Positions 4,020 through 48,412 of a stretch of DNA of 64,000 nt are shown here, one piece after another; position 1 is the first letter of the stretch; each line of letters begins with the position of its first letter. A program made the translations under genes and the position numbers. A model generated the notes under the pieces. The model saw nothing but the letters and a program-made list of their open reading frames with translations. It searched no databases and was not told where the DNA came from. The stretch is from the NCBI GenBank assembly GCA_963708305.1, contig CAVPSH010000003.1:319957-383956 (forward strand), in the 5' to 3' direction. Origin of the DNA: an uncultured bacterium (GTDB taxonomy: Bacteria > Verrucomicrobiota > Verrucomicrobiia > Limisphaerales > UBA11358).

Positions 4020-4025
4020 ATCTGT

Positions 4026-6410: not shown

Positions 6411-6424
6411 CCAGCGAAACCCAG

Positions 6425-9307
6425 ATGAAATTGACTTTTTCCAAATTCGAGGGCCAGGTTCGGTCAGGATTCCTGTTCTTATTGGTCGGCTTGTGCTTGG
6501 GTCCGGTGGCGGGAATGGCCACGGATTTGAACTATATCAATACCGGTACCATCAATGGAGTTCCACCTCAGGTCGATGCCATAAACTTTTTCAACTCCGG
6601 CACGTGGTTTATTTCCACCAGCGCTCCTTATGAGACGGCCAACACGCTGACTTACACCAACAAGGGCCTGATGTTCGGCACGCCCGGCTGGGAATTTGAT
6701 TTAGGGCCTTCAACCACCGGATCACGCCCCAATCTATCCTCCATTTTCTACAATGACAACGGGGCGACCATTCAAGCGAGTGATGGCACTGTTATCAACA
6801 TGCAGGAAATAACCAGCGGAGGCAGTTTTTTGCTGATCCAGGCCACGAATATCATCAATCGAGGCCAATTGATTGCTACTCCCTTCGGCCAGATCAAATT
6901 GGTCGGTTCGACCGTCGCCCTGAACCGCAGCACACTGAATATCCCGCCCATCCAAGGAGCCGGCAGCGCCAATAATTTCGGTCAGACGAATTTTACCTCG
7001 GACACAGCCATCTATGACGAATATTGGGGAGAAAGCGCGACGAACGTGTTCACTCCGGACATTTGGGATGGAACGAATGCGGCCGCTGCTGCCGGGCCAA
7101 ATGTCGCTGTCGTTGACCCTTGCAATGTCACCAATGCCGCTACCTATTTAGGTTCCAACCCGGGGCCTTTCAGTGGTTTTACTCCCAGTTTTTACGCCTG
7201 GACCAATGTCCCGGATCCCAATTCGATAACGAATATCTCAACCAATGGGGTCGCGCTGGTGACCAATCGCATCTTCCGGCAAGCCGTGTTTGTTACGGTC
7301 AGCGATCCCAATATTGTTACCAATAACCCGAGCACCAATGCACTCATTCGTTTTACACCCACCGGCAGCGCCTCAAACCTGTTTCAGACGGTCAGTGTCT
7401 GGCTGCATTCTACCAACGCTACCGATTTGTATGTTCAGGATACTTTGGGGTCTCTGACCAATCGTGGGACGCTTAAAAATAACAGCGGCCAGGTTCCCGG
7501 CGCCAATCCGCGGACTCCTTGCACCGGTCCAGTCTTTCGCCCGGCCAATTATCTTGTGGAGCGCGTGGACAGTTCGTTTACCAATGGCGTTTCGGGCAAC
7601 GTTACGCCTCCACCCAACAACTTTTTGTTCGATCCGAGTTTCAGCAATATCGTTGTTACCGCTGATGTTGCCGCTTATCAGGCGTTCGTGGATGATTTGG
7701 GCTATAATCCCTCATGGGCCAGTGTGACCAATTTGCCCGGGCGGATTATCATCAATGCCAACAATTTGGATCTCACCCGGACGGTGATTTCCAATTCCGG
7801 GCCTCAGGTTGTCATTCAGGCCAACAACATCATTGGCAGCTCCGGCGCCGTCATTTCCTGCCAAAATGTGAGTTTTAACCTCAACTCTTCGAACGGTAAT
7901 GTGAATGTGCTCGATCTTGCCACCAACGGGTCGCTTCCCGCGTTGAATGGGACAGTTTCGCTCTGGAGCGCCGATTGGACCAATTTCCAGACTGTGTTCG
8001 TTCCGGCCGCGGCAACTAATAATACCACTGAAATTCATTTTCATGTGCTGCTGGTGGATGCCACCGGGCTGCTTACGACGGTTCCGGTCAAGGTTCAGGA
8101 TTTGATTTTGGAAACCAACACGGTGATCAGCGATTCCATGAACGTGGCAAACTCGTTTTTGTTCAAGGGTTCGAGTTTGACTCTGCAAGGGAACCTTGCC
8201 CTTTTCAACCATATTCAGAATTGGAACGGCTCCCTCGCCCCGTCCTTGCTCTATTTTACGAATAATGGCTCTCTTTCTGTCCCTAACGATGCTCATTTCG
8301 GAGATGATACGGCGGTTTCCTATGCCGCTTTTGTCAACAACGGATCCATCGGTGTGGGTGGCGGTGAGACCATCAATAGCACTTACTACCAGGAAAACGG
8401 GGGGGTTGAAGACGCGCCCCAGGGCTTCTTTGTGAGCGCCGCGACCGGCTTGCTGCAAAACGCCTTTATCATCTCCGGCCAGGACATTGATTTTGCCGTC
8501 GGCACATTGCAACTGCTCAACAACTCCATACTCTTTGCCGGGAATACGTTGGACTTTAGCGTGACCAATTCGTTATCCGACAGCGGCGGGGCCAATGTCC
8601 TCAATTGTGCCAATGGATTTAATTTATTCGTTGCCCCAACCAGTGGAAACCTGGCGGCCAGCACCATCGTCGATACCGCGTCCGGAAATCAGTTGATTGA
8701 CCATGCGTGGGCAGGACAGGACTCGGGATCGGGTGCGCCCGGGACCGTGAACAATGTGGCCATCGGCACACTGTCATTGGACGCCCAGAACCCATCGCAA
8801 TTGCCGACGTTCCACTTTTTCGGTACCAGCGGCAACAATGCCATGTATGTCAACACATTGAATTTGACCGGGCTTGGCGCCACCCCCGCAAACATCACGA
8901 GCTTTATCCAGATCGACCCCGGCATGAAAATTTATTTTGCCAATGTCCAACCTGCCCTCCTGAGTGGACAATCAACGCTGACCGTCCTGCAAAACCAGTT
9001 CCCCGGCCAATTTATCCAGGATGCCAATGCAGGCCTGAGCGTTGGTGGAACATCGACCAATATCGTCATTTCTGGCATTGCGGCCCATCCCGCAGGAATG
9101 TTTGTGCTCACCTGGAACTCGACTGCCGGCGCAACCTACTCGGTGCTCAAGTCCGGGGTTTTGAGCGCTTCGACCAGTTGGCCGGCGATTGTGACAAATT
9201 ATCCCGCTGGCGGAGCCATCGGCGGTCCGCTTTCCTACACGGATACAACCGCCACCGCTGGCCCGGCATTCTACCGGGTAATGGCTGGATCGCGGGTGGC
9301 CCAATAA
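6425..9307 (+). CDS. Very large secreted protein (960 aa, Asn/Ser/Thr-rich, possible beta-helix adhesin-like) with the shared C-terminal module
   Basis: Signal-like N-terminus ...FLFLLVGLCLGPVAGMA. C-terminus FVLTWNSTAGATYSVL...PAFYRV. Starts 15 nt after the upstream stop. Confidence 0.6.
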   Translation: MKLTFSKFEGQVRSGFLFLLVGLCLGPVAGMATDLNYINTGTINGVPPQVDAINFFNSGTWFISTSAPYETANTLTYTNKGLMFGTPGWEFDLGPSTTGSRPNLSSIFYNDNGATIQASDGTVINMQEITSGGSFLLIQATNIINRGQLIATPFGQIKLVGSTVALNRSTLNIPPIQGAGSANNFGQTNFTSDTAIYDEYWGESATNVFTPDIWDGTNAAAAAGPNVAVVDPCNVTNAATYLGSNPGPFSGFTPSFYAWTNVPDPNSITNISTNGVALVTNRIFRQAVFVTVSDPNIVTNNPSTNALIRFTPTGSASNLFQTVSVWLHSTNATDLYVQDTLGSLTNRGTLKNNSGQVPGANPRTPCTGPVFRPANYLVERVDSSFTNGVSGNVTPPPNNFLFDPSFSNIVVTADVAAYQAFVDDLGYNPSWASVTNLPGRIIINANNLDLTRTVISNSGPQVVIQANNIIGSSGAVISCQNVSFNLNSSNGNVNVLDLATNGSLPALNGTVSLWSADWTNFQTVFVPAAATNNTTEIHFHVLLVDATGLLTTVPVKVQDLILETNTVISDSMNVANSFLFKGSSLTLQGNLALFNHIQNWNGSLAPSLLYFTNNGSLSVPNDAHFGDDTAVSYAAFVNNGSIGVGGGETINSTYYQENGGVEDAPQGFFVSAATGLLQNAFIISGQDIDFAVGTLQLLNNSILFAGNTLDFSVTNSLSDSGGANVLNCANGFNLFVAPTSGNLAASTIVDTASGNQLIDHAWAGQDSGSGAPGTVNNVAIGTLSLDAQNPSQLPTFHFFGTSGNNAMYVNTLNLTGLGATPANITSFIQIDPGMKIYFANVQPALLSGQSTLTVLQNQFPGQFIQDANAGLSVGGTSTNIVISGIAAHPAGMFVLTWNSTAGATYSVLKSGVLSASTSWPAIVTNYPAGGAIGGPLSYTDTTATAGPAFYRVMAGSRVAQ

Positions 9308-9390
9308 CGGCTTCGTTGCCTCTCCGATCTCTGTTATCAGGGGTGGCGTGACTTTCGTGTCGCGCAACTAAACCTGCGTTTATCATTACG

Positions 9391-9978
9391 GTGATGAAAC
9401 TTTTAGGATTAACCGGGGGCATTGGCATGGGCAAATCCATGGCCGCCCGGTTTCTCCGCGAACGCGGCGCACAGGTCGTGGATGCCGACGAACTGGCACA
9501 CCAACTGGTTGAACCGGGCCAGCCGGCCTGGGCGGAAATCCAGACGGTTTTTGGCCGGGACGTGGTCCCCCCGGGTGGCCAATTGCGCCGTGATCAACTG
9601 GCGCAAATTGTTTTTGCCGACCCCGCCGCCCGCAAAAAACTTGAAGCCATTTTGCACCCGCGCATTCAAGAGCGCTGGCTGGCGCAAATCGAAACCTGGC
9701 GCCGGGAGGATCGCCCCCTGGCCGTGGCCGTGATTCCATTGCTGTTTGAAACGAAAACCGAATCGCGTTTTGACAAAACCGTCTGTGTCGCCTGTTCGGC
9801 GGCACACCAGCGCAAAAGACTTTTGGAACGCGGCTGGACACCGGAGCAAATCGAGCAGCGCATTGCCGCCCAATGGCCGATGGAGCAGAAAATCGCCCGC
9901 GCCGATTTCGTCGTCTGGACCGACGGCTCGCTCGAGGCGCACGCGCAACAAATCGAACGAATTATTGCCCTCGGGTAA
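9391..9978 (+). CDS. coaE: Dephospho-CoA kinase
   Basis: N-terminal P-loop LGLTGGIGMGKS, size 195 aa, family-typical ...VVDADELAHQL...ILHPRI... Confidence 0.9.
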   Translation: MMKLLGLTGGIGMGKSMAARFLRERGAQVVDADELAHQLVEPGQPAWAEIQTVFGRDVVPPGGQLRRDQLAQIVFADPAARKKLEAILHPRIQERWLAQIETWRREDRPLAVAVIPLLFETKTESRFDKTVCVACSAAHQRKRLLERGWTPEQIEQRIAAQWPMEQKIARADFVVWTDGSLEAHAQQIERIIALG

Positions 9979-10034
9979 CACTCTCCCGGAAGAACATTTC
10001 CTTTTGTCGTCATCTTCTGTTAGCTTGGGTTGGC

Positions 10035-12233
10035 ATGATTCTCACGTCGGACGAATTGCACAGCCTGGTTGAGTTGACCCATCAGTCGCCGCACACGCTG
10101 CTCGGCATGCACCCGCTCGGCGATGGTTCGGGTCTTGTCGTTCGCGCTTTTTTGCCCGATGCCGCCAGGGTTGAAATCCATCCCACGCATGAAAAGGACA
10201 AGCCGAAGTTCGAGCTGAAGCGGCTTCCCAACACGGACATTTTCGAAGGCGTGGCCCGGCCGGTGAACAAGGTTTATGCCTACGATTTGGTCGTCACCAC
10301 GCATCAAGGCCAGCAGCGCCGGACGCGCGACGCATTTTCGTTTCTGCCGACGCTCAGCGAGTCGGATTTGTTTCTCTTTGGCAAGGGTGACGAGCGGCGA
10401 ATTTACGAGAAACTCGGCGCGCAATTGCGCGTCATTGACGGCGTCCACGGCACCAGTTTTGCCGTCTGGGCGCCGAATGCGCAACGCATCAGCGTCGTCG
10501 GCGATTTCAACCATTGGGATGGCCGCTTTCACCCGATGCGGCTGCTCGGCGCGTCCGGCGTCTGGGAAATTTTCGTTCCCGGCGTCGGCGAAGGCGCGCA
10601 TTACAAATTTGAGATTCGCGATGCCCGCGGAAACATCAAGTTGAAGACCGATCCGTACGGTTTTTTCTTTGAAGTGCCGCCGAAAAACGCCGCCATCGTC
10701 TGGAACAACCACAAATTCAAGTGGACGGATGACGCCTGGCTGAAACGCCGCCGGGAACAAGTGCCGCTCCGCTCGCCGATGAGCATTTACGAGGTGCATC
10801 TCGGTTCCTGGCGGAAGAAATCCGTGGGCGAATCGTTCAGCTATCGCGAGCTCGCCGCGCCCCTGGTGGAGTACGTCAAACGCATGGGATTCACGCATGT
10901 CGAATTTATGCCGGCGGCGGAACATGCCTTTTATCCGTCGTGGGGTTATCAGGTGACCGGTTTTTACGCGCCGACCAGCCGTTACGGCACGCCGGACGAT
11001 TTCCAATTTCTCGTCAACGCGCTGCACGAAGCGGGCATCGGCGTCATCATTGACTGGGTGCCGGCGCATTTTCCGCGCGACGATTGGGCGCTGGCGCGTT
11101 TCGACGGCACCGCGCTTTACGAACACGAGGACCCGCGCAAAGGCGCGCACCAGGATTGGGGCACGCTGATTTTCAATTACGGCCGCCATGAGGTGAGCAA
11201 TTTTCTCGTCGCCAACGCGCTGTTCTGGTGCGACCGCTTCCACATGGACGGCTTGCGCGTGGATGCCGTGGCTTCGATGCTTTACCTCGATTATTCGCGC
11301 AAGGAGGGCGAGTGGATTCCGAATCAATTCGGCGGGCGCGAAAATCTCGAGGCGATCGAGTTCCTGAAAAAATTCAACCATCTCACGCACACGGAATTTC
11401 CCGGCGTGATGACCATCGCCGAAGAATCCACCGCCTGGCCGCTGGTCACCCGGCCGCCGTATCTCGGCGGTCTCGGTTTCTCGTTCAAATGGAACATGGG
11501 CTGGATGCACGACACGCTCGGTTATTTCAGCCACGAACCGGTTCACCGCAAATATCATCAGAACGACCTCACCTTCGCGATGCTCTATCATCATCACGAG
11601 AACTTCATCCTGCCGCTCTCGCACGACGAGGTTGTTCACGGCAAAGGTTCGTTGATTGGCCGGATGCCGGGCGACGACTGGCAGAAATTCGCGAACCTCC
11701 GCGCGCTGCTCGCTTATCAATGGTTGTTTCCCGGCAAGAAACTCCTGTTCATGGGCGGTGAATTTGGCCAACGCGCCGAGTGGAATGAAAACGGCCAGCT
11801 CGATTGGTGGCTGCTCGACGCCGGTCCGTATCATCGCGGCCTGCAAAAATTCGTTGAAGACTTGAACCGGTTATACGCGGCGGCCCCTGGCCTCTGGCAA
11901 TCCGATTACGACCACGGCGGTTTTTATTGGATTGATTGCGCGGATCGTGACAACAGCGTTCTGTCTTTCGTCCGCCAGGCCGCCGACGGCTCCCACCCGC
12001 TGGCCGTAATTCTGAATCTGACACCGGTGTTGCGGGAAAAATACCGCGTCGGGCTGCCGCGCGCCGGCCAATGGCGTGAAAGGTTGAACAGCGATGCCGC
12101 CGTTTATGGCGGAGGCAATCAGGGAAATCTCGGTGGCGTCACGGCGGCAAACATTTCGTGCCACAACCTGCCTTGCTCGGCGGAGTTCCGCCTTCCACCG
12201 TTGAGTGCTTTGGTTTTTCAGCCGGAAGCTTAG
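10035..12233 (+). CDS. glgB: 1,4-alpha-glucan branching enzyme
   Basis: GH13 motifs GVIIDWVPAHF, HMDGLRVDAVASMLY, MTIAEESTAWP, LPLSHDEVVHGK. The ATG at 10035 is preferred over the ORF-track start at 9873, which overlaps coaE. Confidence 0.95.
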   Translation: MILTSDELHSLVELTHQSPHTLLGMHPLGDGSGLVVRAFLPDAARVEIHPTHEKDKPKFELKRLPNTDIFEGVARPVNKVYAYDLVVTTHQGQQRRTRDAFSFLPTLSESDLFLFGKGDERRIYEKLGAQLRVIDGVHGTSFAVWAPNAQRISVVGDFNHWDGRFHPMRLLGASGVWEIFVPGVGEGAHYKFEIRDARGNIKLKTDPYGFFFEVPPKNAAIVWNNHKFKWTDDAWLKRRREQVPLRSPMSIYEVHLGSWRKKSVGESFSYRELAAPLVEYVKRMGFTHVEFMPAAEHAFYPSWGYQVTGFYAPTSRYGTPDDFQFLVNALHEAGIGVIIDWVPAHFPRDDWALARFDGTALYEHEDPRKGAHQDWGTLIFNYGRHEVSNFLVANALFWCDRFHMDGLRVDAVASMLYLDYSRKEGEWIPNQFGGRENLEAIEFLKKFNHLTHTEFPGVMTIAEESTAWPLVTRPPYLGGLGFSFKWNMGWMHDTLGYFSHEPVHRKYHQNDLTFAMLYHHHENFILPLSHDEVVHGKGSLIGRMPGDDWQKFANLRALLAYQWLFPGKKLLFMGGEFGQRAEWNENGQLDWWLLDAGPYHRGLQKFVEDLNRLYAAAPGLWQSDYDHGGFYWIDCADRDNSVLSFVRQAADGSHPLAVILNLTPVLREKYRVGLPRAGQWRERLNSDAAVYGGGNQGNLGGVTAANISCHNLPCSAEFRLPPLSALVFQPEA

Positions 12234-36356: not shown

Positions 36357-37028
36357 TCAGGGGATCCAGACCAGTTTCGGATTGTTGGTAATACATTTAT
36401 TTTTTTTGGAATCCCAGTACGCCGTATTCTTGAACGAGGCCACATGACCGTCGAGGAAAACAAACTGCGCACCGTGTTGATGCAAATCACGGTGAACGAA
36501 AGTCCAGCCACCCAGCGCAGGTTGATTTTTGCTGTCGAACAACCAGATGACAGCATCCGGTCGCGAAATTGAGACCAGTCGTATCGGATAATTATTCGAG
36601 CCTGTGCCGTTGACATATTCGTTGAGGCAATAATGAAAAAGCTCCGTCCCGTTGCTGCGTCGAGGATTATTGGGACAAATCCAGATCGAATGACCCAGAT
36701 TGGCGTGGGAGTTGGAACGCCAGGGCATTTCATAATACGACGGCAATCCAATCGTCTGAGGGAGCAAGACGTACCAACTGTTGGTATGTACCGACTGGGT
36801 GGGTACCAGCGGAGGATTGGCCCAACCTTCGGGCGGCAAACGATCACCGTGATCTGCCGCGTAAAATTGAGTCGCCGTTCCCCATTGCCTGAGATTATTC
36901 CGGCAGGTGACCGCCTGCGCCGAGGCTTTGGCGTGGCCGATGACGGACAACAACAGCGCGGCCAGGATGGCAATAATCCCCATTACCATCAGCAGTTCGA
37001 TGAGCGTGAATGCCCGGGTTCGTGGCAT
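36357..37028 (-). CDS. Prepilin-type N-terminal cleavage/methylation-domain protein (DUF1559-like)
   Basis: MPRTRAFTLIELLMVMGIIAILAALLL and C-terminal HQHGAQFVFLDGHV (H-x9-DG-like motif). Confidence 0.85.
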   Translation of the reverse strand: MPRTRAFTLIELLMVMGIIAILAALLLSVIGHAKASAQAVTCRNNLRQWGTATQFYAADHGDRLPPEGWANPPLVPTQSVHTNSWYVLLPQTIGLPSYYEMPWRSNSHANLGHSIWICPNNPRRSNGTELFHYCLNEYVNGTGSNNYPIRLVSISRPDAVIWLFDSKNQPALGGWTFVHRDLHQHGAQFVFLDGHVASFKNTAYWDSKKNKCITNNPKLVWIP

Positions 37029-38510: not shown

Positions 38511-39077
38511 ATGACTCTTTTGCAACGGGCGATTGAAGACTCCATAAAAACCTGCCGTGGGCTTGCGGATTTAGAAGAGCCGCTGAATCGTGCCGCGCAG
38601 ATGGTTTCGCGTTGTCTGACCTCCGGCCACAAGGTGCTCACCTGCGGCAATGGTGGCAGCGCGTCAGACGCGACGCATCTGGCCTCGGAATTCCTCTGCC
38701 GCTTTGTGGAAGATCGCCGGCCGTATCCGGCCATTTCACTCACCGCCGACGGCGGGTTCCTGACCGCCGTCTGCAACGATTACAGCGTTGACGAAATGTT
38801 CGCTCGACAGGTTCGGGGTTTGGCCGAAAAAGGCGACGTGCTCATCGCACTTACGACCAGCGGTAAATCCAAAAACGTGTTGCGGGCGCTGGAAGAGGCC
38901 AAACGCAAGGGCGTCGAAAGCATCTGTTTTCTGGGCCGTGACGGCGGTTTCACCAAAGGCGTGGCCACGCTGGATTTACTGGTGCCGGGTGATAAAACAG
39001 CAAGGATTCAGGAAGGCCATAAGCTGCTCATGCACGTCCTGTGCGAAATAGTGGAAGAAAAACTGCCAAAACAGTAA
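38511..39077 (+). CDS. gmhA: SIS-domain phosphoheptose isomerase (GmhA/DiaA family)
   Basis: KVLTCGNGGSASDATHLASEF, ALTTSGKSKNV. 188 aa. Confidence 0.85.
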   Translation: MTLLQRAIEDSIKTCRGLADLEEPLNRAAQMVSRCLTSGHKVLTCGNGGSASDATHLASEFLCRFVEDRRPYPAISLTADGGFLTAVCNDYSVDEMFARQVRGLAEKGDVLIALTTSGKSKNVLRALEEAKRKGVESICFLGRDGGFTKGVATLDLLVPGDKTARIQEGHKLLMHVLCEIVEEKLPKQ

Positions 39078-39169: not shown

Positions 39170-39421
39170 TCAGCGGTTGGAAGCAGCGGGATTCAGCAGG
39201 GTGAAGAGGATCAAAATCCAGGCCGCGCCCCATAGCACAATCCCCAGAGAGCCACATACAACTCCCCAAAACCAGTAAGGCTTGGCCGCATTCCAGTATT
39301 TCTTCTGTCGGACGCGGACATTTCCAGAAATCACCAGGGCGGCAACTGCAAAAGGAAATCCAATCAGCGGTAATAATCCCACCAGTCCGCATACAAAACA
39401 TTCCAGCGAGCTTTTGAGCAT
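39170..39421 (-). CDS. Small two-TM membrane protein, last gene of the pilus/T2SS-like operon
   Basis: MLKSSLECFVCGLVGLLPLIGFPFAVAALVISG...YWFWGVVCGSLGIVLWGAAWILILF. 83 aa. Starts 26 nt after the upstream stop. Confidence 0.5.
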   Translation of the reverse strand: MLKSSLECFVCGLVGLLPLIGFPFAVAALVISGNVRVRQKKYWNAAKPYWFWGVVCGSLGIVLWGAAWILILFTLLNPAASNR

Positions 39422-39447
39422 CTGGATTCTGGCTTCGATATCGGCGT

Positions 39448-39684
39448 TCACTTTAATTCCAGTTTTACCCGCGATTCTGCTACAGAAGTGGCGTTGGTTT
39501 GCGAGGCGTTCAGGCGGGCAACCTGCCGGCTCTCCAATAATTTGATTTCCCGATGTAGATGGAAAAGGGCTTTGCTGTTGGCGATGGCCAACATCACCAT
39601 GATCACCAGCAACGTGATTAAAACCAGGACGGTGGAGCCGTTCTGCCGGCGGTGTTTGGAAAAATCTGCAAAGGTAGTTTTCAT
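39448..39684 (-). CDS. Short pilin-like / GspK-N-terminus-like membrane protein
   Basis: ...HRRQNG|STVLVLITLLVIMVMLAI has no Glu at +5, as in GspK-type minor pseudopilins. ATGA overlap with the upstream gene. Confidence 0.5.
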   Translation of the reverse strand: MKTTFADFSKHRRQNGSTVLVLITLLVIMVMLAIANSKALFHLHREIKLLESRQVARLNASQTNATSVAESRVKLELK

Positions 39685-40187
39685 GGTGCGGTTTTTGCCG
39701 CCGCCTCAAATGTAAATTGCAGCGGCAAATGCGTTACCTTGCGGTGTGGTTTCAATTCCAGTTCCCAGCGCCACGCAGTGACGGTCCCACGCGTGTCCAT
39801 GACCATTTGCGAGGCCTCGACGGCGGTCAGTATTGACTCGGCAAAACCCGATGACGCCAATTGGCGGCGGATTTTACCGGCGGTGAAACGGTAAACGATC
39901 TCGTTTGTCCCACAAGGAATGCGCAGAAGCTCGCCGGCTGCGTTGGTCTCAACGGTGATTTTTCCAGTCGTACCGCGGATGTCTGCACGCCAGCGCTCAC
40001 CGGCACGCAAGGCGGTGGCAACGTCGTCCGTGGTAAGGCGCAACGCCTTCGAGTTATCCCAGCACAGATAGAATGTCGCCAGACCCAACCCGGTGATGAC
40101 AGCGAATACAACAATGTAAACCAGGCACTCCAGCAACAGATAACCGGCTCGAGCACGCGCACCAGAGATGGGAGATGAGAGTTTCAT
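39681..40187 (-). CDS. Pseudopilin-like protein with a class III signal
   Basis: MKLSSPISGARARAG|YLLLECLVYIVVFAVITGL (Gly-1, Tyr+1, Glu+5). 168 aa. The start overlaps the upstream stop as ATGA. Confidence 0.7.
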   Translation of the reverse strand: MKLSSPISGARARAGYLLLECLVYIVVFAVITGLGLATFYLCWDNSKALRLTTDDVATALRAGERWRADIRGTTGKITVETNAAGELLRIPCGTNEIVYRFTAGKIRRQLASSGFAESILTAVEASQMVMDTRGTVTAWRWELELKPHRKVTHLPLQFTFEAAAKTAP

Positions 40188-40577
40188 TTGACGGTGATTT
40201 CGCGGACAACCACCCCGATGCCGCGCGGTTCGTCCGATTTCCATTCGAGGCGCAAATGTTTTCCGGTCCTGGTCAACTGAAAACGGCCGGGCGGCAGGGT
40301 GGTGGCGGCCTGAGCATGAACTGTATAAATCTGTTGCCCATCCGGAAAGTCCCGCCATTCGCCCGCGGCCAGGATCTCCATTTCGCCATCCACAATTTCC
40401 ACGGCGACGGCGCGCGAAGTATTCGGCGCGGAGTGATTTTCGTTCGTGCACAAATGAATAGGCCAGGGGCATGATCGCCACCGTGAGAATCGCCATACCG
40501 ACAGCCAAATCCACCATTAAGAACCCGCGCCGGCAATGATATCCAGCGTTGGATAATTCTAACTTTTCAGTTCTCAT
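40184..40577 (-). pseudogene. Pilin-like protein, in frame with the upstream GspF-like ORF and carrying a +1 frameshift near 40442
   Basis: MRTEKLELSNAGYHCRRG|FLMVDLAVGMAILTVAIMPLAYSFVHE in the 716-aa ORF frame. Protein-like continuation NHSAPNTSRAVAVEIVDGEMEILAAGEW...REITVK* in ORF 40184-40453. Confidence 0.55.
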
Positions 40578-41795
40578 AATGTTGACAACATTCGCTTTCA
40601 AAATCGCCACCAAAATCCCGAACATGGCCGTTGTAATCAATCCGACGGCCAGCCCATTCAAAATCACCAGACTGCTGGTAATGACATGAGCGGTGGCTTC
40701 CTCCTGCTGAAAGGCTTTCGCGTCGAGTGCTTCATGCCAGCCGCGTAAAGCCTCCAAGAATCCGCCGCGCGTGTGCGTCGCGTTAGTCAACCGCCAATGA
40801 AATTCGCCGCTTTCGTCGAACGCTCGGACGGCCTCATCGAGTTTTACTCCTTGTTCAATCGCGATAATAATGCGTGCAGCGCGTCGTCGTCCGATTTCAT
40901 TGGCGGTACAATCGCCCGCCAAGCGGACCGCTTCAGTTTCCGGCACGCCGCCATCGAGCAGCACGGCCAGCATGGCCGAAAACGTCCGTTGCAATCGTTT
41001 ATGTTTCCACGGAATTGTCCATGCAACCCAGTCCACAAAGGGCCATCCCGGAAATTGAAACCGCCGGGCAAGCTGCGGGCCGCCGACGTAAAGCAACGTC
41101 GCAACAGCCAGAAATAGAAAGAGGATGACTTCAAAATCAATCAGCCAGGCCGTGTGGGCAAAGACGAACTGTGTCAATGGCCACAGCCGGATGTTTGATC
41201 CCTCAGCGACGCCCTTGAACCGCGGTACGACAAAAGTCATCGTTATCGTCGCCACACCAACAAAGACCGGTGAGAAAAAGAGTATGACCAAAATCATATA
41301 ATGCACGGCGCTGCGAACGGCGGCCGGACGATCCTGCAGGATTTCGCGACAGGCGGGCAACACGCGCCGCAGGTCGCCAAGTTTTTCACCGGCGCGGAGC
41401 ATGGCGGAAATTTGCGGCGGCACAAAGCGCGGGACTTTTTCCAATGCCGCAATAAAACGCAGTCCGCTTTCGATGTGCGCCGCCAGCAAATGAAATCGCA
41501 CGCCAACGGTTCGGTCGCGGCTTTGTGCAAGGGAGAGGATCATTTGTTCAGCCGTCTGGCCACGATTGAGTGCGCTTTCAAGCAAATCTAGAAACAATCG
41601 TGCGCGCTCCATGCGGCGCATGGGCACGGTGAGGGAAAGGTGAATCAGGAAAATTATGCCCGCCAGGCTGCCCGCCCAAAAAAGAAAGGCCATCGCCCCC
41701 ACTGCCAGTCTGGCCGGCAGGTCGCCGCCGGAAGCAAAGATGGCGGAGTTGAAAGCCAGACCCGGCAGCGGCTGAAAAATTGTTTCAACATTCAT
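40578..41795 (-). CDS. Second GspF/PilC-like platform protein (two T2SSF-like domains, extra N-terminal TM); no stop codon before the pilin-like segment
   Basis: Two repeats of the helical-bundle-plus-TM pattern (...AEQMILSLAQS...ISAMLRAGEKLGDL... and ...LAVLLDGGVPETEAVRLAG...FLEALRG...). Start at 41795 is preceded by GGAG. Confidence 0.65.
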
Positions 41796-41805
41796 TGTCA
41801 CTCCG

Positions 41806-42792
41806 TCATTCTCCGGAACCGCCCAGCGCATTGAGAAAAGCGACTAGCGCGGCGAACACGGGCTGAATTTGGGACATAATCATTACTGCCAGGGCCAGAA
41901 TGGAACACGGCAGCGCCGAGTAAAGCAGCAGTTCAGAACGATAAAGGGAACGGGAATGGAATAGTTCGGCGGCGCGCCGAAAACCGGCAGTTAAATCCTC
42001 GCCGGATTGCGCGACTGTCCAGGTAAAGAGGGCTGGAAACGTTTTACCCACGGTTGCCATTTCAGAAAATTTTCCGTGGCCGGAAGCCAGGCGCTGCCGC
42101 CATTGCCCAATTTCCTTCTCCGCGCCAGTTCCTTTTTCGAGTTCTTCCACGAGTGCCAGCGCATCGTCGAGCGGCACGCCGTTCTTCAGCATCAGCCACA
42201 TGGCAGAGGCAACCTGGGCCAAGCTTGCTTCCCGGAAGGCGGGCAACCGCCAGCGCAACAGCCGGCGCGCCGGCGAAATGACGATGCCAACCAGAGTCGC
42301 AACCAGCGCCAGTCCGATGAATACCGGTGACATCCACAAACCAGCCGAAACCGCTGGAATGGCCGGGCGGCCGACGAGTGATTGAAGATTATTCCAGATA
42401 AAAGCGCCGAGGATGAAGGATAGAAAACAAGAAAGTAGAAATGCGATCGACAGAACAATGAGAGGATAAACCATCAAACCTTTCAATCTCGCCCACAGGC
42501 TGCTCTGACGTTGAAAATAATCCGCCAGCATCGTCAACGCGCCGGGCAGGTCGCCGCTTTTGACGCCGACGTGCACCATGCATTTGTAGAGTTCGGGAAG
42601 CCGTCGGTTTTTCAACGCCTCGGCCAGCGGCACGCCTTTGGCGAGGTCGGCTTCGAGCGCCTGCAATTCATCGCGTAAAGCGCCGCGCCGCATTTCCTCG
42701 CAAAGCCGCCGCAAGGCGCCTTCGAGTGGGATGCCGTCGCGCAACATCGCGGCAAGCTGTTGGTTGAAAAAGGCGAATTCGTCGTATTTCAT
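41806..42792 (-). CDS. gspF: Type II secretion / type IV pilus platform protein (GspF/PilC family)
   Basis: FFNQQLAAMLRDGIPLEGAL...VHVGVKSGDLPGAL and a second domain MLKNGVPLDDAL...AQSGEDLTAGF. 328 aa. ATGA overlap with gspE. Confidence 0.8.
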   Translation of the reverse strand: MKYDEFAFFNQQLAAMLRDGIPLEGALRRLCEEMRRGALRDELQALEADLAKGVPLAEALKNRRLPELYKCMVHVGVKSGDLPGALTMLADYFQRQSSLWARLKGLMVYPLIVLSIAFLLSCFLSFILGAFIWNNLQSLVGRPAIPAVSAGLWMSPVFIGLALVATLVGIVISPARRLLRWRLPAFREASLAQVASAMWLMLKNGVPLDDALALVEELEKGTGAEKEIGQWRQRLASGHGKFSEMATVGKTFPALFTWTVAQSGEDLTAGFRRAAELFHSRSLYRSELLLYSALPCSILALAVMIMSQIQPVFAALVAFLNALGGSGE

Positions 42793-43883
42793 AAGCCGAA
42801 AATCCGTTTGAACTCCGCTTCGTTCGTCACACCCTGTTCCACCAACGCGCGTGCCGAGGCTTCCAGGGTTTGCGCCGGGATGAGCGAGGACAGTTCGCGC
42901 CGGCGGATTTGTTCGCGCATTTTTTCGTTCACGCGCAGCCACTCGACCAGCGGTACCCGGCCCTGATAGCCGGTTTGTAAACAGGTTTCGCAACCCGCGC
43001 CGCGGCAAGCGGCGCAGAGTTTGCGGATGAGCCGCTGGTTCAAGACCAATTCCACTGCGCTCGCCACGGCGGAATGGTCGGCACACATCACGAGCAAACG
43101 CTCAAAAACGCCGCGGCACGAACCGGCGTGCAGCGTGGAAATCACGAGATGGCCGGTCAGCCCGGCGCGGACGGCGAGTTGCGCCGTGGCTTCATCGCGA
43201 ATCTCGCCGATGATGAGCGCCTGCGGGTCCTGTCGCAGCAGATGCCGCGCAGCACGGGCGAAATCGAGGCCAATAGCTTCATTGACCTCGGTCTGCATCG
43301 CACCGGGGATGATTTGCTCCACCGGATCCTCGACGGTGATGATGTGGCGTCCGCCGAGTTCAGTAAGGTGGCGGAGGCAGGCGTAAATGGTTGTCGTCTT
43401 GCCGCTGCCTGCCGGACCGGTGAGCAACAGCAGGCCGGCAGATTGGCGGAGAAAATGTTCGAGTTCGGTTCCGGCGGCGGCGGGCAGGGACAATTCGCGG
43501 AGCGACTGGGCCGACGAGGAATTGAACAGACGGAGAACGATTTTTTCGCCGGTGACGGTCGGATAGGTGGCAACCCGGATGTCGTTCTGGATGCCGAGTT
43601 CGTCATGCGCAATCCGGCCATCCTGCGGCAACGATTCCTGATACGTCTTCAGCCGCGCCAGAAACTTGATCCGGCCAAACACGCGTTCGGCCACGTCGTT
43701 GGTCAGTTCGCGTCCGGGAACAATGACGCCGTCGAGCCGGAAGCCGACCTCGGCGGTCTTGCTGCGCATTTGCAGGTGGATGTCGCTGGCCCCGGCGCGT
43801 TCGGCCTGCCGAACCAGTTGCTCCAGAATTTCCGGCGCGGAAGTTTTTCTCCCGCCGTTTACCTGTGCCGCTTCTGACATCAT
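42789..43883 (-). CDS. gspE: GspE/PilB-family secretion ATPase (short form)
   Basis: SDIHLQ, Walker A LLLTGPAGSGKTTT, IITVEDPVE, LRQDPQALIIGEIRD, TGHLVISTLH, CAACRGAGCETC. Confidence 0.9.
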   Translation of the reverse strand: MMSEAAQVNGGRKTSAPEILEQLVRQAERAGASDIHLQMRSKTAEVGFRLDGVIVPGRELTNDVAERVFGRIKFLARLKTYQESLPQDGRIAHDELGIQNDIRVATYPTVTGEKIVLRLFNSSSAQSLRELSLPAAAGTELEHFLRQSAGLLLLTGPAGSGKTTTIYACLRHLTELGGRHIITVEDPVEQIIPGAMQTEVNEAIGLDFARAARHLLRQDPQALIIGEIRDEATAQLAVRAGLTGHLVISTLHAGSCRGVFERLLVMCADHSAVASAVELVLNQRLIRKLCAACRGAGCETCLQTGYQGRVPLVEWLRVNEKMREQIRRRELSSLIPAQTLEASARALVEQGVTNEAEFKRIFGL

Positions 43884-43959
43884 AAATAAATTCTTTCCAT
43901 CGTCACGCCACCCCGCCAAGCCATCGACTTTGCCGTCAAAGCTCCGGCTTTCCGCCGGA

Positions 43960-44289
43960 TTACTTATCAGCAATCAAATAGCGCAGGCCATGCTCGTCCG
44001 CCATGAGCACGCGGAGATGACCGGGCAGTTGCACCAATTCACGCCGGAACATGCGTGCGTCCTTTACCATGACCTCAACCGTCGGCCAGAGCGCCAGCGC
44101 AAAAATCAAACAGGCTAAAGCGGCGGCGCTGCTCCAGGTCAACCGGCAGGCGAAGGACGTTCGCGGCCGCGCCACCAAAACCCAGGGCAATTGCGAGCGC
44201 ACGCGCGGCGGGAACTGTTCCCAATACTCGTCCGACCGCGTCGGCAGCGGGATGGCTTTCAATCGCGATTCAAGTTCAGAGTCATTCAT
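43960..44289 (-). CDS. Anti-sigma factor (single TM), putative
   Basis: 109 aa with one TM (WSSAAALACLIFALALW). Overlaps the ECF sigma stop by 8 nt. Confidence 0.55.
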   Translation of the reverse strand: MNDSELESRLKAIPLPTRSDEYWEQFPPRVRSQLPWVLVARPRTSFACRLTWSSAAALACLIFALALWPTVEVMVKDARMFRRELVQLPGHLRVLMADEHGLRYLIADK

Positions 44290-44836
44290 GGTTCCGGTCG
44301 CCGCCTGCGAGCCAGCGTTTCAATTTTTTCTTCGCGGAAAAAACGCGCCACGAAACAGTCGTTTCCGAGCAACGCAGCACTTTTGCCGCTTCCGCGTGAG
44401 TCAAACCGTCGTAAATTGTGAGCACAACTGCCGCGCGTTGCTTGGCCGGCAATTTCAGCAGCGCCGCCTGTGCGCGTTGTGCCATTTCAGCTTCGGCCGG
44501 CGCAGGTTCGGCGGCGATTCGTTGCACTGAAAATTCGTTCGCGCAATTGACATAAGCCTGAGAACGGCGTGCCTCATTCCGCCGCCAGTTCAAGCACGTG
44601 TGAACAGCGATGCTGTAAAGCCACGTGGAAAACTTCGCCCGTCCGTTGAACGAGCCGATCTGCTCGTAGGCGCGCAGGAACGTCTGCTGCGCCAAATCTT
44701 CGGCGTCGGCGGGCGAGCCAGTCATCCGAAATGTCAGAGCATGAACCATTTGTTGATGTTTTCGCACAAGCTCCTCAAAGGCCGACTTGCTGCCATTTTG
44801 ACTTTGCAACACCAAATCATCATCGGCGTCGGCCAT
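44282..44836 (-). CDS. ECF (sigma-70 family group IV) RNA polymerase sigma factor
   Basis: Region 2 AFEELVRKHQQMVHALTFRMTG...AEDLAQQTFLRAYE...FSTWLY. Region 4 LPAKQRAAVVLTIYDGLTHAEAAKVLRCSETTVSWRVF. Confidence 0.9.
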   Translation of the reverse strand: MADADDDLVLQSQNGSKSAFEELVRKHQQMVHALTFRMTGSPADAEDLAQQTFLRAYEQIGSFNGRAKFSTWLYSIAVHTCLNWRRNEARRSQAYVNCANEFSVQRIAAEPAPAEAEMAQRAQAALLKLPAKQRAAVVLTIYDGLTHAEAAKVLRCSETTVSWRVFSAKKKLKRWLAGGDRNHE

Positions 44837-44964
44837 GGAGGTTGCTTTTGAAAACTTTGAACCCGTCGCCGCCGGAATCCTTTGAATTTTTTTTCCGCCG
44901 CTGACCGGGCGGGGAATGGCGACACCGCCACCCTCGGCAAGGGGCAACGCAGAAGTGGTCATCT

Positions 44965-45049: not shown

Positions 45050-45625
45050 TCAAAAATACTCCGGTTCGTTACCGGATTTCCACTTGATGTTGCAGCCGAT
45101 GCTGGCTTTTTGGTTCGGCGAAACGGGCTTGCCGGCCAGCACGGCGTCCAGCGCGGCGCGCAAATCCTTTCCGGTTACGGGAAGGCCGTTACCAGGACGG
45201 CTGTCGTCAAATTGGCCGCGATAGACGAGCTTGCAGTCTTTGTCGAAGAGATAAATGTCCGGCGTGCAGGCGGCCCGGTAGGCTTGGGCGACGGCTTGCA
45301 ATTCGTCGTAAAGATACGGAAAAGTATAACCCGCGGATTTCACTTCTTCCTTCATCTTTGCGGGGCTGTCTTCGGGATAATTCTCCACGTCATTGGAGTT
45401 GATGCCGACAATGGCAACGCCGCGAGGCAGGTAATCGCGGGCGAGTTGCGCCAGGCTGGTGCGGATGTGCTTCACATAGGGGCAATGGTTGCAGATGAAC
45501 AGAACCAGCAGCGCGGACTTGCCTTTGAAATCCGCCAGCGAAACAATTTTCCCGTTGGTATCCGGCAATTTGAAATCGGGTGCGGCCGTGCCGAGCGGCA
45601 GCATGGTTGAAGGTGTCAGTGCCAT
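45050..45625 (-). CDS. Thioredoxin-fold thiol-disulfide oxidoreductase (AhpC/TSA-like family)
   Basis: APDFKLPDTNGKIVSLADFKGKSALLVLFICNHCPYV (CxxC). 191 aa from the Met at 45625. Confidence 0.8.
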   Translation of the reverse strand: MALTPSTMLPLGTAAPDFKLPDTNGKIVSLADFKGKSALLVLFICNHCPYVKHIRTSLAQLARDYLPRGVAIVGINSNDVENYPEDSPAKMKEEVKSAGYTFPYLYDELQAVAQAYRAACTPDIYLFDKDCKLVYRGQFDDSRPGNGLPVTGKDLRAALDAVLAGKPVSPNQKASIGCNIKWKSGNEPEYF

Positions 45626-45686
45626 GTGGGGAATATAAGTCCAAGGTGCAAAGTTCAAAGACCAAATTTTCCAGGTTTAGGGTGTT

Positions 45687-46590: not shown

Positions 46591-48412
46591 GTGTGGGCGG
46601 CTGGCAGTTGGTCTCCGCCCAAGGTTCGCCTCCCGTTTGTATCGGAACTGCGACATTATTCCTGGGACAAGTTCCGTCATGACGCGATTGCCGGCGCGAC
46701 TTTGACGCTGGTTTCCATCCCTCAGGCGATTGGTTTCGCGCTGATTCTCGGCCTGCCGCCGATGCCGGTGATTCTTTCCGTGGTGGTCGGAGGATTTTTC
46801 AGCGCGTTGTTTTTTTCCTCGCACCATCACGTCTTCGGGCCGACCACGTCCGTTTGCCTCATCACGGCGGCGACGCTGGCGGCCAACACCGATCTCGGCC
46901 TGCACCCGCTGCAGTTGGCCGCCTACCTGGCGTTTATGATCGGCGTCGTCCAGTTCGTCGCCGGGCTGTTCAATTTCGGCGAAGTCACGAAATTCATCTC
47001 GCGTTCGGTGGTGGTGGGCTACACGACGGCCATCGGTGTGCTGTTGATCTTCAGCCAACTGCACAACGGGATGGGATTTTCCAGCCCGGCGGGCGACGAT
47101 TTCCTGAGCACACTTGAAGAAGTGGGGGTGGCCATCGGCGTGGGTAATTTTTCATGGTGGTCCGTCGGTATTGTCGCACTGACGCTCCTGATTTTTGAAG
47201 GCATCAAACGCTGCGCGCCCGGCCTGGCCGGAGCCATTATTGGGGCTGGCTTTTCTGGCGATGGCCGCGCGCGTTTTCGCCCATTTTTATCATGAAGTGC
47301 CTTTTCATCTGGTCAAGGACGAGGGTGCCCTGGCTGCGGCGTTGCCGACGCTCAAACATCTTCCCACCTTGCAGGATCAACTGCCCATCGTTCGCCAGTT
47401 GGCCGGCAGCGCTCTCGCCATCGCCATCATCGGGATGCTCGAAGCCACGGCCATCACCAAGACGCTGGCTGCCCGCAGCGGCCAGCATCTGGATCCCAAC
47501 CAGGAACTACTGGGCATGGGCGCAGGCAATATCGCCGCTGCACTGTTCGGGCTGACACCCGGCTCCTCCTCCTTCACCCGTTCGGCGGTCAATTATCAGA
47601 GCGGCGCCGCTTCGCAGCTTTCGTCCATGCTGAGCAGCGTTACCGTGCTGCTCATCCTGCTGTTCCTGACTCCGCTCTTCAACTATATCCCCGTGCCCGC
47701 GCTGGCTGCCCATCTCATGCGGGTCGGCTATAAACTGATTAACCGCTCGCAAATCCGGGTCTCGACCCGGTCCACCCGCTCGGACGCCGTCGTTTTTTTC
47801 TCGACACTGGGAGCCGCACTTTTTCTCAGGCTCGACACCGCCATTTACGTGGGCATTGGTGTGGCGCTGGCGTTATTTCTGCAAAAAACCAGCACGCCGA
47901 CGCTGGCGGAATATACCTTCAATGAAAGCGGGCAACTGGCCGAACTGCGTGATCGGAAACAACGTCCCAATCCCCAAATTTCCATTATTCATGTCGAAGG
48001 CGAGCTGTTTTTCGGCGCCGCGGATCTGTTCCAGGACCAAATTCGCCGCCAGGCCGAGGACGAAAACATCCGCGTTTTCATTCTCCGCATGAAAAATGCG
48101 CGGCATCTCGATGCCTCCACCGTCATGGCGTTGGAATCACTTCACGATTACCTGCGCAAGACGGGCCGTTATCTGCTGATCAGCGGCAGCAGTCCTGATG
48201 TTACCCGCGTTCTGCGCAACAGCGGTCTGCTGAAACAAATCGGCGAGGAGAACATCTTTCCGGCTGAGATCAATCCGACGATTGCCACCAAACGGGCACT
48301 GGTACGCGCCCGGGAACTGTTGCCGCAGAAGGCCGATGTCCGGTTGTTTTACGGCCGTCCGCTGGACAACGACTCCGGAGTTCTCAAAGAAATCAGTGAT
48401 TACGAAATTTGA
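46591..48412 (+). pseudogene. SulP-family anion permease with a C-terminal STAS domain, frameshifted (+1) within 47195-47250
   Basis: DAIAGATLTLVSIPQAIGFALILGLPP in ORF 46591-47295. Continues as GLAFLAMAARV...EATAITKTLA...STAS (IIHVEGELFFGAAD) in ORF 47195-48412. Confidence 0.85.

Follow-up and report, generated by a model that had tools for sequence, protein, structure and literature searches.

A window of 64,000 nucleotides (nt) from an uncultured Limisphaerales bacterium (Verrucomicrobiota; GenBank assembly GCA_963708305.1, contig CAVPSH010000003.1, positions 319,957 to 383,956) was analyzed in this study. It contains a run of nine tightly packed genes on the minus strand, from 44962 down to 39170, encoding in order an extracytoplasmic function (ECF) sigma factor, a small membrane protein, an assembly ATPase (E), two platform proteins (F and F′), three small proteins (pil1, pil2, and pil3), and a small protein with two transmembrane (TM) segments (tm2). 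We propose, with a probability of roughly 0.6, that this cluster encodes the inner-membrane core of a lineage-specific type IV filament (T4F) machine of the Verrucomicrobiota, here of the Limisphaerales. It is a conserved and previously uncharacterised cluster of soil Verrucomicrobia and represents a variant within the known type IV filament superfamily. That a T4F-type machine with two full platform paralogues is encoded here is a claim that holds, and it is strengthened by the conservation of the cluster and by the pairwise behaviour of F and F′.

Gene order, conservation, and integrity

The features of the run are as follows (lengths in amino acids, aa).

44855..44896, minus strand: ECF-type promoter-like motif, AAAAAAAATTCAAAGGATT-N11-GGGTTCAAAG
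44282..44962, minus strand: ECF sigma factor with Sigma70_r2, r4_2, and TIGR02937 matches; the short form from 44836 has 184 aa
43960..44289, minus strand: putative anti-sigma factor, 109 aa, one TM segment; 8-nt overlap with the sigma stop
43943..43959, minus strand: GC-rich hairpin TCCGGCGGAAAGCCGGA in the 76-nt spacer ahead of E
42789..43883, minus strand: E, GspE/PilB-type assembly ATPase, 364 aa; N2 and C-terminal domains only
41806..42792, minus strand: F, platform protein, 328 aa; two T2SSF domains, three TM segments
40574..41795, minus strand: F′, second platform protein, 406 aa after correction; two T2SSF domains, four TM segments
40184..40577, minus strand: pil1, prepilin-like, 130 aa after correction; RRG|FLMVD
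39681..40187, minus strand: pil2, prepilin-like, 168 aa; RAG|YLLLE
39448..39684, minus strand: pil3, bitopic, 78 aa; NG|STVLV
39170..39451, minus strand: tm2, small two-TM protein, 93 aa from GTG 39451 or 83 aa from ATG 39421

A thioredoxin-fold redoxin gene (45050-45658) lies upstream on the same strand, and a SIS-domain gene (38511-39077) lies downstream in convergent orientation. As claimed in the preliminary description of this DNA, ATGA start/stop overlaps are present at 42789-42792 (E/F), 40184-40187, and 39681-39684, and F is separated from F′ by a 10-nt gap (CGGAGTGACA) that contains GGAG. The corrected F′/pil1 junction (see below) is a TTATGA overlap. The packing suggestive of translational coupling recurs in related loci, where 4-nt overlaps are found between E and F in 50 of 66 loci, pil1 and pil2 in 70 of 77, pil2 and pil3 in 65 of 69, and pil3 and tm2 in 61 of 64; such overlaps dominate every junction except F/F′, which has a gap of 8-24 nt. 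For the last gene, described earlier as an 83-aa protein with two TM segments, the TM segments were recovered but the length is more likely 93 aa; the GTG start at 39451 forms a GTGA overlap with pil3 and is the start called in relatives.

The gene arrangement is far beyond chance; the same order recurs in 84 related loci. These comprise 80 loci from a scan of one genome per species, all of them from Limisphaerales or "subdivision 3" metagenome-assembled genomes (MAGs), and four others. All 84 of these Limisphaerales loci contain F′ and pil1, and the gene order never varies; the counts for the other genes are 83 for F, 82 for pil2, 77 for E, 75 for tm2, and 73 for pil3. The families extend well beyond this set: F′ has 1938 matches at E<=1e-5 in a collection of 5.8 billion proteins, for which the most specific annotation is "type II secretion system F family", and pil2 has 835 matches, nearly all "hypothetical". 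A profile search among 1.84 billion representatives assigned 333 clusters (50% identity) to the F′ family at E<=1e-30.

Four distant members keep the order F-F′ followed by proteins of about 130, about 170, and about 60-100 aa.

L085: E-F-F′-125-170-87 aa
L087: F-F′-126-172-79 aa
L091: F-F′-139-171-102 aa
L092: E-F-F′-131-191-75 aa

The core of the cluster is thus F-F′-pil1-pil2-pil3, usually with E in front. The gene tm2 occurs only in Limisphaerales loci and is absent from L085-L092; together with the redoxin gene and the sigma pair it is a lineage-specific addition. Of the order predicted to be conserved, the E-F-F′-pilin part is found both in the Limisphaerales and in the distant relatives, but the sigma pair is present in only half of the loci (42 of 84) and absent from the distant relatives, so that being headed by an ECF sigma gene is not a defining trait. 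The pair is instead an accessory, lineage-variable regulator, and in loci without it E directly follows the redoxin gene. The reported lack of secretin, prepilin peptidase, and GspC/L/M genes extends to the gene calls of all of the approximately 90 loci.

In the uncorrected window, F′ has no stop codon. Its open reading frame (ORF; 39681-41831, 716 aa) passes the pil1 start, continues through out-of-frame sequence, and runs into pil2, and pil1 itself falls into two frames. Two 1-nt insertions became evident when the window was aligned with a short-read contig that is nearly identical to it (L001) and with a related MAG (L002): an extra C (minus strand) at 40594 removes the stop codon of F′, and an extra T (minus strand) at 40421 puts pil1 out of frame. 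When both are removed, F′ comprises 406 aa and ends in ILKGMLSTL, and pil1 comprises 130 aa. Both frameshifts had been overlooked in the previous calls of F′ and pil1.

Two frameshifts within 175 nt (40594 and 40421) might suggest that the cluster is a decaying pseudogene locus in this genome, with F′ fused to pil1, pil1 broken, and no machine made. We consider this very improbable. The short-read contig L001 has neither shift, its F′ protein is identical to that of the window except for the shifted C-terminus, and the out-of-frame part of the window's pil1 still retains 100% protein identity to L001. Three more shifts break nearby genes relative to L002, two in the homoserine dehydrogenase gene and one in the SulP transporter gene, and the closest species representatives, which are long-read MAGs (L025, P0047), show similar breaks. 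Because five shifts are found in about 16 kb and housekeeping genes are among those affected, the frameshifts are most likely indel errors of long-read assembly rather than gene decay, and pseudogene decay was rejected as the main explanation of the locus. The homoserine dehydrogenase gene is spread over three frames, with shifts at approximately 48705 and 48780, and the SulP gene is split into 46591-47295 and 47195-48412 by a shift at approximately 47216-47253. The window probably derives from an error-prone long-read assembly.

The platform pair and the ATPase

F and F′ had been described as two full two-domain platform paralogues in tandem. Each protein was cut in two and the halves were scored separately against T2SSF (PF00482), for which the Pfam gathering cut-off is 25.2 bits. 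Every half exceeds this value (89.9 and 36.3 bits for F; 41.2 and 31.3 bits for F′), and both proteins are thus two-domain T2SSF platform proteins; the profile check that could have spoken against the second paralogue identified F′ as a member of the family. F has the usual three TM segments, at 111-129, 154-172, and 288-306, and lacks the first ~60 residues of canonical GspF, and F′ has TM segments at 167-185, 217-235, and 369-387 plus an extra one at 33-51. F and F′ are distant homologues: BLASTP found no significant match between the two, whereas hhalign aligned them colinearly over 269 columns with a probability of 96% and 22% identity. A recent duplication was rejected as the origin of F′, since the two proteins lack BLASTP similarity and are linked by profile comparison only. 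The best Foldseek match of the AlphaFold2 (AF2) model of F′ is PilC (3jc8_Ca, E 3e-4), and OutF, EpsF, and TcpE are among its further top matches.

The two platform proteins behave as a pair. Pairwise identity matrices of 62 loci correlate at r=0.86 between F and F′, compared with r=0.32 between F and E and r=0.37 between F and pil2; E, pil1, and pil2 intercorrelate at 0.68-0.78. Two types of F/F′ cassette exist, one with an F of 325-346 aa and an F′ of 391-411 aa, the other with an F of 331-341 aa and an F′ of mostly 383-388 aa, and their distribution runs against the similarity of E and the pilins. Compared with the window, L039, L054, and L055 share 86-96% identity in E and 70-88% in pil2 but carry the other cassette type, at 53-59%; for L039 alone the values are 96% for E, 88% for pil2, 55% for F, and 59% for F′. 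Lineages with nearly identical E and pilin genes have exchanged F-F′ cassettes. In L089 (1344-6583) the order is E-F-F′-F-F′-pil1-pil2-pil3, with the platform pair duplicated in tandem as a pair; the two F copies share 44% identity and the two F′ copies 37%. Both F′ copies of L089 (510 and 523 aa) have long multi-TM N-terminal extensions.

Co-variation, cassette swapping, and duplication as a pair fit two proteins that must match, which points indirectly to a hetero-oligomeric platform in which F and F′ would be obligate partners. In the current model, as set out in reviews and in a study of PulF, the platform presents a ring of six cytoplasmic domains, provided by a homotrimer or, in the tight adherence (Tad) system, by three TadB/TadC heterodimers (PMC10191384, PMC10790770). 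Two different two-domain platform proteins that are inherited, exchanged, and duplicated together cannot form a symmetric homotrimer, and this widespread natural system therefore offers a direct test of the platform's stoichiometry and of the way in which its domains are distributed over the six ATPase subunits.

E agrees with its earlier description as a short GspE-type ATPase without a long N-terminal domain. It matches the Pfam family T2SSE (8.9e-92, 308 bits) and carries the Walker A motif GPAGSGKTT, and its NCBIfam scores for GspE (313 bits) and PilB (282) lie above that for PilT (147), which places it in the GspE/PilB group. Comparison with the PDB gave the same ranking, with GspE at 9e-65, PilF/PilB at approximately 1e-63, and PilT at 1e-26. 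The alignment of E covers positions 112-387 of the GspE model only, which indicates that the N1 domain is missing.

Small proteins, mini-prepilins, and regulation

Each of pil1, pil2, and pil3 has a short cytoplasmic N-terminus followed by one TM segment, and all three had been called pilin-like. For pil1 and pil2 this is supported by a conserved Gly at -1 and an acidic residue at +5: among approximately 80 orthologues the Gly is kept, and the residue at +5 is Asp in more than 90% of pil1 proteins and an invariant Glu in pil2 (G15 nearly invariant and E20 invariant in the pil2 alignment). Both positions persist even in relatives in which F′ identity drops to about 35%. The AF2 model of pil2 (78 sequences; predicted local distance difference test, pLDDT, 85) shows a helix at 6-71 (66 residues) followed by eight strands that form an all-beta domain, and this predicted layout resembles the general layout of pilins. 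N_methyl (PF07963) is the most frequent weak Pfam match of pil2 (14 of 78 members, best E 0.037). The putative pilin assignment draws on the signal-peptide-like motif together with the predicted layout and the genomic setting. pil3 does not share the acidic +5 residue; its TM segment is followed by a conserved helix, LHRExKLLEQQQIKRLN, and it could serve either as a minor subunit of a cap-like kind or in an accessory role.

The shared architecture of a short cytoplasmic N-terminus and one TM segment would also suit bitopic accessory parts of the platform that stand in for GspL/M/C or PilN/O; all pilins would then be encoded at other loci. The absence of above-cut-off matches of pil1-3 to pilin families fits this alternative, as does the plain TM-then-helix organization of pil3. 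In pil1 and pil2, however, Gly(-1) and Asp/Glu(+5) stand at the exact spacing of a class III signal peptide, even at ~35% identity. PilN, PilO, and GspM have an alpha-beta ferredoxin-like fold, unlike the long N-terminal helix and all-beta head of the pil2 model, and the most frequent weak Pfam match is a pilin one, N_methyl. We therefore regard the accessory role as unlikely for the set as a whole.

Mini-prepilin genes were found in five relatives. They encode 44-48 aa, of which 37-39 aa would form the mature protein (G|LSLIELLCV...), and lie at ~4590-4735 in L020, ~4595-4740 in L038, ~4465-4610 in L074, ~6720-6870 in L041, and ~6725-6870 in L051. In L020, L038, and L074 the prepilin (44-47 aa; for example MKPQNWG|LSLIELLCVVAIISILVAIYLGVIAKALGHVKKVLGN) follows a second copy of the sigma promoter motif described below, and in L041 and L051 the gene lies between E and F. 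These two were the only mini-prepilins in the E-F gaps of 14 loci. The mini-prepilins would be among the shortest type IV pilins. A search of the 64-kb window for a mini-prepilin or other short pilin gene returned none, the sole other prepilin-like gene being that at 36357-37028 (minus strand, 223 aa, MPRTRA|FTLIELL), which has Ala instead of Gly at -1. Its product is one of the N_methyl/SBP_bac_10 (DUF1559-like) proteins, of which Verrucomicrobia and Planctomycetes have many, and may serve as a substrate of an E-F-F′ machine.

The sigma factor reported at 44282-44836 is clearly of the ECF type, with regions 2 and 4 both detected (Sigma70_r2 1e-21, r4_2 5e-13) and a TIGR02937 score of 104.7 bits against a cut-off of 42.9. 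Its frame is open upstream to an in-frame ATG at 44962 (42 codons), which would give a 226-aa form; 35 of 36 loci likewise have an open frame ahead of the sigma start, with a conserved ATG (MTxxALP...KIIQRI...). The adjacent 109-aa ORF, with its single TM segment and 8-nt sigma overlap, is present as described, but its designation as anti-sigma follows from position and architecture only. It has ~45 cytoplasmic residues, a TM segment at 50-68, and ~40 periplasmic residues, and matches no Pfam or NCBIfam family; its N- and C-terminal motifs are conserved. It always occurs with the sigma factor (41 and 42 of 84 loci), and its gene overlaps that of sigma in 32 of 34. The gene overlap, the strict co-occurrence, and the single-TM architecture make this protein a putative anti-sigma factor. 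We take its ~45-residue cytoplasmic domain to be reminiscent of CnrY-type factors.

An ECF-type promoter had been expected at 43884-43960. That interval contains one 9-of-12 sigma-70 match overlapping the E start, no more than in shuffled sequences, and no ECF-like motif. A candidate lies instead upstream of sigma, at ~44855-44896: the motif AAAATAATTCAAAGGATT-N11-13-(GGGTTCAAA or TTTGTCAGA), in short form TTCAAAGGATT-N11-TTGTC/GGTTC, is nearly invariant in 35 of 36 sigma loci and ends approximately 20 nt before the sigma ATG. Its two blocks resemble those of the general ECF promoter, with an AAC/GGAAT-like -35 and a GTC-containing -10. The motif lies inside the possible N-terminal extension of sigma (44837-44962) and is conserved at third codon positions, and it is possible that long and short sigma forms are made from two promoters.

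In L020, L038, and L074 the second copy of this motif is found ~400 nt further upstream, ahead of the mini-prepilin gene. In L020 and L038 in-frame stop codons lie between the copy and the tiny gene, and this copy is therefore non-coding there. The motif before mini-prepilin genes would tie the sigma factor directly to filament genes. L034 has a second copy (~451-700) that is not followed by a recognisable mini-prepilin and may be a remnant of a lost mini-prepilin gene.

Because the gap between the anti-sigma gene and E is 0-30 nt in 31 of 37 loci (76 nt in the window), the simplest reading is that transcription from the sigma promoter reads through into E. The hairpin at 43943-43959 in the window directly follows the anti-sigma stop, lacks a T run, and also occurs in L039, a close relative; lying between the regulator genes and E, it may act as an attenuator or influence RNA stability. 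Loci without sigma were searched with a fuzzy pattern and a shuffle control. A different ECF-like block, TAACGAAyC-N9-10-yTGTCCAA, lies about 30 nt before E in 15 of 30 of them; 0 of the 37 loci with sigma and 4 of 3350 shuffles have it. Judged from these motifs, ECF-type control seems to apply to the operon with or without the sigma pair.

The proposed machine and its relation to known systems

In the machine that we propose, a hexamer of the N1-less GspE/PilB-type ATPase E would drive a platform in which F and F′ would be obligate, matched partners. A prepilin peptidase whose gene would lie outside the cluster would cleave pil1 and pil2 at the conserved Gly, and together with pil3 they would form a priming or tip complex. 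The filament body would be built from a major subunit encoded elsewhere, which in some relatives might be the prepilin of 44-47 aa (37-39 residues when mature). In this genome the whole run would be read from an autoregulated ECF-type promoter ahead of the sigma/anti-sigma pair, so that the machine would be switched on by an envelope signal. Such a machine is a candidate for the motor that assembles the numerous prepilin-like proteins of soil Verrucomicrobia, and it would link an ECF sigma factor to filament genes through a clear promoter motif.

Several observations weigh against this proposal. None of pil1-3 matches a pilin family above cut-off in Pfam or NCBIfam, searches of the PDB with the pil2 profile and with the pil2 model gave no match, and pil3, which has no acidic residue, might not be a pilin but a bitopic accessory protein. 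No prepilin peptidase gene that would cleave the predicted prepilins turned up among the gene calls of related loci, and no search of the full 64-kb window was aimed at peptidases. No major pilin or mini-prepilin gene was found in the 64-kb window. The AF2 model of F′ has low confidence (pLDDT 64), F and F′ might co-vary in part because their genes are physically linked and not because the proteins touch, and two different two-domain proteins do not simply fit the homotrimer version of the six-domain ring. As for regulation, the promoter call is based on resemblance to the general ECF consensus rather than on a mapped transcription start, and the hairpin after the anti-sigma gene might attenuate read-through.

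Neither a description of this cluster nor a named system with two full-length platform genes was found in the literature searched, in which subscription journals were not covered; the preliminary view that the layout belongs to no named system is thus upheld within that scope. In surveys of the superfamily, paired platform genes are reported only for Tad/Epd, with single-domain TadB and TadC that arose by fission, and for some archaeal systems, and minimal or odd clusters are classed as "generic" (PMC6668835). The latter class includes a type II secretion system (T2SS), that of chlamydiae, which belong to the Planctomycetes-Verrucomicrobia-Chlamydiae (PVC) group; this T2SS has no GspL/M and no recognisable minor pilins (PMC6668835).

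The Com pilus (ComGA, ComGB, ComGC-GG) resembles the cluster in its minimal one-operon layout of an N1-less ATPase, a platform, and several small pilin-like genes, with PilMNOP and GspCLM genes lacking from that operon. In NCBIfam, ComGA ranks fifth among the matches of E, ComGB matches F and F′, and ComGF weakly matches pil2. All of these scores, however, lie below the equivalog cut-offs (ComGA 234 against 300; ComGB 59 for F and 35 for F′ against 240; ComGF 16.5 against 80). The Com pilus is a monoderm system, whereas the host of the cluster is a diderm verrucomicrobium. The cluster also has two platform genes rather than one and three small proteins rather than five, and its operon lacks a major pilin and would be under ECF sigma control.

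The Tad/Flp pilus (type IVc pilus, T4cP) shares two tandem platform genes with the cluster, and its very short Flp pilins parallel the mini-prepilins of related loci with their 37-39 aa mature forms. TadB and TadC nevertheless have one T2SSF domain each and arose by fission (PMC6668835, PMC10191384), whereas F and F′ are both two-domain proteins. E belongs to the GspE/PilB group and not to TadA/CpaF, with a TadA-family match of E=2.9e-7 and 30 bits against a cut-off of 373, and the cluster has no TadZ, TadG, RcpA, or TadV genes.

Similar to the T2SS, the cluster has GspE as the best family match of E, GspF as that of F and F′, and pseudopilin-like N-termini. It differs from the canonical T2SS in that E, aligned to GspE 112-387 only and thus without an N1E domain, scores 313 against an equivalog cut-off of 630, F and F′ score 102 and 56 against 424, no GspC/D/L/M/O or G-K model is matched, the Gsp pseudopilin models included, and two platform proteins are present. 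With the type IVa pilus (T4aP; PilB/PilC, PilMNOPQ) it shares a PilB/GspE-clade assembly ATPase, a platform protein (F′) whose best structural match is Myxococcus xanthus PilC, and a PilM-like/secretin operon elsewhere in the genome. Unlike the T4aP, the cluster lacks PilT and the PilB N-terminal domains and has two platform proteins, and its small proteins match no FimU/PilVWX family.

A more far-reaching idea, which we put forward only tentatively, is that these loci represent a distinct, Verrucomicrobiota-restricted class of T4F. In such a class an obligate F/F′ hetero-oligomer would replace the homotrimer, helix-only mini-pilins of 37-39 residues would be polymerised onto a pil1-pil2-pil3 primer, and a dedicated ECF sigma/anti-sigma pair would serve as the switch.

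The cluster had also been described as a reduced machine. No secretin or GspC/L/M gene is indeed found in the locus, but its status as reduced is uncertain, since a motorless PilM-like/secretin operon could be its partner. A complete secretin gene (173-820) lies ~39 kb from the cluster and encodes 215 aa with a signal peptide and a Secretin domain. As a stand-alone secretin-domain protein it is far shorter than usual secretins. In relatives the secretin gene ends an operon that encodes a 616-aa PilM_2-domain fusion protein, proteins of 320 and 277 aa with no family match, a 754-aa TPR protein, and the secretin. In L094 the operon upstream of the secretin gene lies at 4065-10648.

This operon may be a partner of the E-F-F′ cluster in a multi-locus envelope-spanning machine. 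The cluster would then be the motor and minor-pilin locus of a T4aP- or T2SS-like apparatus, and the product would be a surface pilus or a secretion pseudopilus passing through that secretin. No homologue of E, F, F′, or the small proteins was found in 80 PilM/secretin loci (730 kb), and the operon would therefore need its motor from elsewhere; the genes of the T4aP are normally scattered over several loci (PMC6668835). On the other hand, the two operons are not linked in any locus, and another ATPase/platform pair may exist in the rest of the genome. In the T2SS it is the N-terminal domain of GspE that binds GspL, and E lacks this domain. The partnership seems conceivable to us, with the odds somewhat against it, and it overlaps with the proposed inner-membrane T4F core rather than excluding it. 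Elsewhere in the window, three consecutive plus-strand ORFs at 2031-9307, without a Pfam match at E<=0.001, encode proteins of 662, 794, and 960 aa.

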